In this document: piece after piece, positions 11,546 through 11,575 of the stretch
How positions within the stretch are numbered: the stretch's first letter is position 1
How the letters are laid out: the number at the start of each line of letters is the position of its first letter
Virus genome (UHGV): UHGV-1706157
Strand: one strand, 5' to 3'
Source of the DNA: a virus
Length of the DNA: 17,319 nt
Translations under genes and position numbers: made by a program
Notes under the pieces: generated by a model
Told to the model about the DNA's origin: nothing
Database searches by the model: none
What the model saw: only the letters and a program-made list of their open reading frames with translations

Positions 11546-11575
11546 ATATTACACTAATAAATTTATTAGAGCAAT
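11546..11575 (-). promoter_or_regulatory. sigma70-type promoter overlapped by a bipartite C1-repressor operator (P1 ban-operon type)
   Basis: Minus strand reads ATTGCTCTAATAAATTT (11575-11559), a 17/17 match to the recalled C1 operator consensus. A second overlapping copy in opposite orientation (11548-11564) matches about 15/17. -35 TTGCTC, 17-nt spacer, -10 TAATAT, all on the minus strand. The operator overlaps the stop codon of the methyltransferase gene. Confidence 0.55.

Follow-up and report, generated by a model that had tools for sequence, protein, structure and literature searches.

Organization of the locus

The DNA analyzed here is a stretch of 17,319 nt (the window), which by its closest matches is part of a P1-type phage-plasmid. 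When positions 10900-12100 and the whole window were compared with GenBank phages using megablast, the records MH422554, MH445380, and MH445381 matched the window at 99.5-100%, reference P1 (AF234172 / NC_005856) at 98.6-99.5% identity, P7 at 96-97%, and SJ46 at 95-98%. The long phage matches listed all begin at position 48, and positions 1-47 had no alignment to the P1-type records listed. The 381 bases around the operator described below were found in 544 PLSDB plasmids, mostly non-mobilizable phage-plasmids of Escherichia or Salmonella. The c1 gene lies about 25 kb from this operator, outside the 17.3-kb window; C1 of the closest complete genomes (MH422554 and MH445380/1) is 99.6% identical to P1 C1.

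The genes on both sides of the operator are read from the minus strand, and they are given here in the direction of reading:

11566-13584, minus strand: dmt, bifunctional C5-cytosine/N6-adenine DNA methyltransferase of 672 aa (open reading frame list; Pfam DNA_methylase and MethyltransfD12)
10893-11539, minus strand: putative untranslated leader of the P1ban transcript, its start placed from the -10 hexamer only
10817-10892, minus strand: tRNA-Asn (GTT)
10739-10814, minus strand: tRNA-Thr (TGT)
8962-9789, minus strand: SPFH/Band-7 lipoprotein of 275 aa (Pfam Band_7, E=9.7e-31), with a signal peptide and the lipobox LTGC
8859-8934, minus strand: tRNA with the CAT anticodon, annotated in P1 as trnI (tRNA-Ile2)
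7208-8578, minus strand: ban, DnaB-type replicative helicase (Pfam DnaB and DnaB_C; annotation)
6210-7208, minus strand: dbn, possible glycosyltransferase (Pfam Glycos_transf_1 at 23.9 bits, below the cut-off of 26.4)

The location of the operator within the series dmt, operator, leader, tRNA-Asn, tRNA-Thr, tRNA-Ile, ban, and dbn is the same in AF234172 and in P7. The cargo differs from that of reference P1 in two respects. The first is the SPFH lipoprotein gene, which takes the place of tciA, tciB, and tciC of reference P1; MH422554 is arranged in this way too, with the gene annotated as 'putative SPFH domain protein', and an 87%-identical SPFH gene is present in phage P88. The second is the product of dmt, which has 672 aa, as in P7 (a 2019-nt CDS), versus 754 aa in reference P1. 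Between the ban operator and the operator Odmt, the window has about 246 nt less than AF234172. The record of P1 also describes dbn as a 'possible glycosyltransferase' and predicts internal promoters for it. The plp and upl open reading frames of the P1 annotation are located on the opposite strand, and hence outside the P1ban transcript. The plp-equivalent frame at 10391-10768 of the plus strand was rejected as a real protein, because it had no Pfam match, its Cys- and Arg-rich translation was unlike that of a real protein, and it overlaps tRNA-Thr on the opposite strand.

The operator pair and the P1ban promoter

The segment between dmt and the leader, positions 11546-11575, very probably contains the bivalent C1 operator Obanab (formerly Op72a,b) superimposed on the sigma-70 promoter P1ban, which would repress the downstream genes in the lysogen. 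Its minus strand, which reads ATTGCTCTAATAAATTTATTAGTGTAATAT, carries the -35 hexamer, the spacer, and the -10 hexamer of P1ban, and the individual elements are arranged as follows:

11559-11575, minus strand: Obana (formerly Op72a), ATTGCTCTAATAAATTT, 17/17 to the consensus with 0 mismatches; equals AF234172 68667-68683, a protein_bind feature for 'phage repressor C1'
11548-11564, plus strand: Obanb (formerly Op72b), ATTACACTAATAAATTT, 15/17 with 2 mismatches; equals AF234172 68678-68694
11574-11569, minus strand: -35 hexamer TTGCTC, inside Obana; read from the sequence and equal to the annotated minus_35_signal of P1ban
11568-11552, minus strand: spacer of 17 nt, read from the sequence
11551-11546, minus strand: -10 hexamer TAATAT, overlapping Obanb; equal to the annotated minus_10_signal of P1ban
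11568-11566, minus strand: dmt stop codon TAA (open reading frame list), inside Obana at positions 8-10 of the 17/17 operator

The two operator sites are inverted with respect to each other, with their centers offset by 11 bp and with a 6-bp overlap, AAATTT. All 30 bases are identical to AF234172 68667-68696, where Obana, Obanb, the divalent Obanab ('controls expression of ban'), and P1ban are annotated, together with a predicted P2ban. They are also identical to the Op(ban) pair of P7, which an excerpt of the P7 record notes as regulating tRNA genes. The position, the hexamers, and the spacer are the same in these phages, and no base differs. Hence, Obanab/P1ban is already known as a named operator-promoter in the P1 and P7 records, and the operator itself adds nothing new.

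Both hexamers of P1ban match the sigma-70 consensus at four of six positions, that is 8/12 in total, and P1ban was not among the sites reported by a generic promoter scan, which needs 9/12. An earlier note on this DNA, made from the sequence without database searches, had described the promoter as consensus-like, which was overstated. The assignment of the promoter follows from its identity to the annotated P1ban. The remainder of the earlier description of this segment held: the perfect operator, its inverted copy of about 15/17, the two hexamers with the 17-nt spacer, and the overlap with the methyltransferase stop codon were all found as it had proposed. The use of TTGCTC in two roles is seen elsewhere in P1, where PpmgR and P2pmgT likewise take their -35 hexamer from this part of the C1 operator. 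With the -10 hexamer as the sole guide, transcription would start near 11539. No other promoter-like site was returned by the generic scan for the 11540-8580 stretch of the minus strand.

C1 operators in the window

The window was searched with the C1 operator consensus ATTGCTCTAATAAATTT as published (PMC8546580). The search returned four matches with at most three mismatches, versus 0.07 expected, and none of 200 shuffles reached four. A weight matrix was also built from 15 of 20 collected C1 operators annotated in AF234172, namely those located outside the region homologous to the window, and both strands were scanned. The following five sites stood out:

11559-11575, minus strand: Obana/Op72a, 26.46 bits, the maximum possible score
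14835-14851, minus strand: Odmt/Op68, 16/17 with 1 mismatch, 25.11 bits; adjoins Pdmt upstream of uhr-hrdC-dmt
1323-1339, plus strand: O26/Op82, 15/17 with 2 mismatches, 23.27 bits; between pmgL and gene 26
11548-11564, plus strand: Obanb/Op72b, 21.09 bits
416-432, plus strand: Oppp/Op83, CATGCACTAATTAATTT, 13/17, 18.15 bits; annotated in P1

With the matrix, all five annotated operators scored 18.1 bits or more, whereas nothing else in the window exceeded 12.7 bits, and the mean maximum of shuffled windows was 12.3 bits. The strongest remaining candidate for a sixth operator, at 7202-7218 of the plus strand, scored 12.7 bits, which is the level of the shuffles, and it was rejected. The window holds exactly five P1-annotated C1 operators and nothing further that is convincing. 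The 16/17 site at 14835-14851 and the 15/17 site at 1323-1339, which had been pointed out in the earlier note, correspond to Odmt/Op68 and O26/Op82, respectively. The matrix scan, which had been suggested as a check, recovered the same sites with Obana at the maximum score, and it added Oppp/Op83, which had not been listed. Hence, the consensus and the coordinates of the earlier note proved reliable, and the result is a clean map of five C1 operators.

Oppp has a weak inverted partner at 427-443 of the minus strand (CTTAAAATAATAAATTA, 11/17, 9.96 bits), which is located at the 11-bp offset of the bivalent operators. This partner is of about the same strength as Oc1b, but its surroundings are AT-rich, and taken alone it does not reach significance.

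Conservation of the operator core

In the alignment of eight elements, which were 87-100% identical over the 381-base query, a 31-nt core (TATTGCTCTAATAAATTTATTAGTGTAATAT) was invariant and was flanked directly on both sides by variable columns. Among 83 P1-type viral contigs with an operator-like core, the 31-mer was identical in 76, and the other seven differed at one base, while the 8-nt flanks of the core occurred in 27 combinations. Because the overall identity of the relatives is high, the conservation taken alone is weak evidence of constraint.

Phage D6 was used as a natural contrast to these elements rather than as support. The downstream leader and the tRNA cassette are common to D6 and P1, but D6 has no C1-type operator in this region, and no D6 record was present among the tblastn matches to C1. 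The lack of the operator together with the lack of a C1 match suggests that the operator travels with the repressor and not with the cargo.

Probable control of P1ban by C1

P1 C1 binds as a monomer. In the lysogen, two C1 molecules would bind the two asymmetric 17-bp sites and would cover P1ban from the -35 hexamer, which is itself operator sequence (TTGCTC), to the -10 hexamer, so that RNA polymerase would be excluded. Such steric exclusion of RNA polymerase appears to be the obvious mechanism, as far as it can be read from the arrangement of the sites. If C1 is inactivated, whether through Coi or Ant1/2 or through heating of c1.100 mutants, P1ban would fire, and its transcript would comprise the long leader, tRNA-Asn, tRNA-Thr, the SPFH lipoprotein gene (tciABC in reference P1), tRNA-Ile2, ban, and dbn. 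Coi and Ant1/2 are antirepressors, while Lxc is a corepressor (PMC8546580).

The binding of C1 and the C1-dependent repression are supported by the annotation of the records and by RT-qPCR data, which showed that ban, as well as dmt, was induced after heat inactivation of the thermolabile C1.100 (PMC4713147). The suggestion of the earlier note that the tRNAs, the structured leader, the lipoprotein, the helicase, and the glycosyltransferase are placed under lysogenic repression is consistent with the annotation of AF234172, with the excerpt of the P7 record, and with this induction of ban (PMC4713147), subject to read-through of the terminator described below. The lipoprotein in that list is best read as the 275-aa SPFH protein with the lipobox LTGC, which is encoded in the direction of the operon. 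What the switch would govern in this P1 variant is thus the long and conserved leader with its terminator, three tRNAs, Ban, Dbn, and, in place of TciABC, an SPFH lipoprotein.

The arrangement at P1ban can be compared with other operators of P1 and with those of phage lambda. Oc1ab (formerly Op99a,b) at Pc1 is similar to Obanab in that two inverted 17-bp C1 sites, with an 11-bp offset and a 6-bp overlap, are located over a sigma-70 promoter. It is different in that it autoregulates c1, and its second half-site is very weak (ACGAAAATAATAGATTT, 10/17, 6.3 bits), as compared to Obanb (15/17, 21 bits). Odmt/Op68, O26/Op82, and Oppp/Op83 share with Obanab the asymmetric 17-bp consensus and the location beside or over promoters of lytic-cycle operons, but they are single sites, and O26 and Oppp adjoin predicted promoters and late promoters for morphogenetic genes. 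The OR and OL operators of lambda, which are bound by CI dimers, are like Obanab in that the repressor site overlaps the promoter hexamers and keeps lytic genes off in the lysogen. On the other hand, the C1 sites of P1 are asymmetric 17-mers, 22 of which are scattered over the genome (PMC8546580), and the 'palindrome' of Obanab consists of two overlapping asymmetric sites, in contrast to the single symmetric dimer site of lambda.

The terminator-like hairpin of the leader and transcription of the downstream genes

A strong hairpin that resembles an intrinsic terminator is located in the leader at 11385-11366 of the minus strand (TGCCCATCTTCGGGTGGGCG), and it is followed by seven T's at 11365-11359. 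It consists of 8 pairs, 5 of which are G-C, and the loop TTCG, and it is reached about 155-180 nt after the presumed start of P1ban, ahead of all the downstream genes. The hairpin is kept in P1, P7, SJ46, and D6, and the homology with D6 begins exactly there. It forms the 3′ end of a region that is called 'dicF-like' in the P1 record (about 11349-11451 of the minus strand, corresponding to AF234172 68791-68892). A search for DicF (Rfam RF00039) returned no match at E values up to 10 in 10890-11600, nor at the gathering threshold in the whole window. The first 190 nt of the leader fold no better than shuffled sequences (z = -1.19).

Given this hairpin, expression of the genes beyond it would need read-through of the terminator. 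The presence of the terminator may explain the modest induction of ban, which was the weakest among the C1-controlled genes measured (PMC4713147). The same observations fit an alternative in which the operator and the promoter are real, but most P1ban transcripts end at 11385-11359, the product being a short leader RNA, about 155-180 nt long. Expression of the tRNAs, the SPFH gene, ban, and dbn would in that case come chiefly from other promoters or solely from regulated read-through, and their control by C1 would be indirect or partial. The hairpin is the best terminator-like site in 6000-12000 and is retained in all the relatives, D6 included, which agrees with such a role, as do the placement of this module behind a Q-type antiterminator gene and a terminator in lambdoid contigs and the P1dbn and P2dbn promoters predicted inside ban in the P1 record. 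However, according to the P1 and P7 records ban and the tRNAs are under the control of the operator, ban is induced by inactivation of C1 (PMC4713147), and the stretch between 11540 and 8580 offers no second promoter-like site on the minus strand. Hence, we consider that predominant termination in the leader is an unlikely replacement for C1 control of the whole series of genes from P1ban.

Another alternative assumes that the sites do bind C1 but serve mainly for something other than the shut-off of P1ban, either as a roadblock to read-through from Pdmt, or as an anchor for looping with Odmt, which is 3.3 kb away. The location of the dmt stop codon inside the operator, the fact that no terminator-like site was reported around 11540-11600, and the control of the upstream operon by a second operator, Odmt, could fit such roles. 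For the c1 region, operators have been reported to loop together through C1, which also counts in favor of this alternative. The -35 and -10 hexamers, however, coincide exactly with the operator, which points to direct occlusion, and this design recurs at other C1-controlled promoters. Moreover, roles of this kind would add to the occlusion and not replace it. We regard either of them as quite improbable as the main function.

The reading as a chance AT-rich palindrome without function, to which the AT-rich composition and the self-complementary AAATTT could be thought to lend weight, since the latter gives an inverted partner at the 11-bp offset 6 of its 17 matches for free, is refuted by the excess of consensus matches over the 0.07 expected, by a matrix score at the maximum and far above all the shuffles, by the identity to an annotated, named operator, and by the conserved core between variable flanks. 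Direct repression of P1ban by C1 bound at Obanab is therefore the explanation that we retain.

A tag-like module in the leader

Downstream of the terminator-like hairpin, the leader contains a short frame at 11297-11265 of the minus strand, UAAAU GCA AAC GAU GAU CUG AUG AUG GUA GCG GCC UAA, which reads ANDDLMMVAA-stop and opens in a resume-like context, UAAAU-GCA. The SsrA tag of E. coli is ANDENYALAA. The non-coding segment from the hairpin to tRNA-Asn, which is about 490 nt long (about 11390-10893 of the minus strand), is nearly identical in P1, P7, SJ46, and D6, and in D6 this module occurs without any C1 operator.

In a permissive scan the best Rfam match of the leader was tmRNA_permuted, with 24.1 bits and E=0.0073, versus a gathering score of 47. 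ARAGORN reported no tmRNA at its default threshold, and a tmRNA with the tag ANDDLMMVAA* appeared only at 80% of that threshold. The element was thus rejected as a tmRNA, since it scored below the gathering threshold of Rfam and the default of ARAGORN, and a change in the proposed acceptor stem in P7 is uncompensated. For this last reason the proposed tRNA-like domain is not convincing either. No Rfam family was found at threshold in the window or in nine divergent loci.

A pattern scan located the tag region in at least 120 viral contigs, with the tags ANDDLMMVAA, ANDDLMLAAA, ANDDLMMAAA, and ANDDYKLAAA. Since the search pattern itself prescribed the frame, the length, and the AA-stop ending, their conservation cannot be taken as a sign of selection. 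In some contigs the shared part amounts to a 64-nt core only, or to as much as about 200 nt. In these lambdoid contigs the core comes directly after a series made up of NinG, a gene for a Q-like antiterminator (phrog_753, E=3e-51), a promoter-like stretch, and a terminator, and it lies upstream of the lysis genes. By its position, this context is that of a late leader, and tRNA clusters are often nearby.

The region of the module was found in 560 of 5426 RefSeq complete E. coli genomes. Among the matches listed, no RNA was annotated over the module: 38 of 40 were without a feature, and two had a hypothetical protein. No mention of the tag was found in the literature searched. It could be that a phage-borne RNA, either tmRNA-like or linked to trans-translation, is gated by C1 in P1 and by Q in lambdoid phages and would be made in lytic growth only; we put this forward tentatively and regard it as rather doubtful. 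On this reading, Obanab/P1ban may be more than a switch for the Ban helicase, as the first and best-conserved product of the promoter would be a leader of about 650 nt with an intrinsic terminator, followed by the structured tag module of about 490 nt. This unannotated tag-like module may deserve separate study.

Two hairpin-like stretches of the leader, at 11470-11445 and at about 11175-11100 of the minus strand, differ between P1-type and P7-type sequences by seemingly paired changes, for example CTGGG...CCCAG versus GGGG...CCCC, which suggests a conserved RNA structure.
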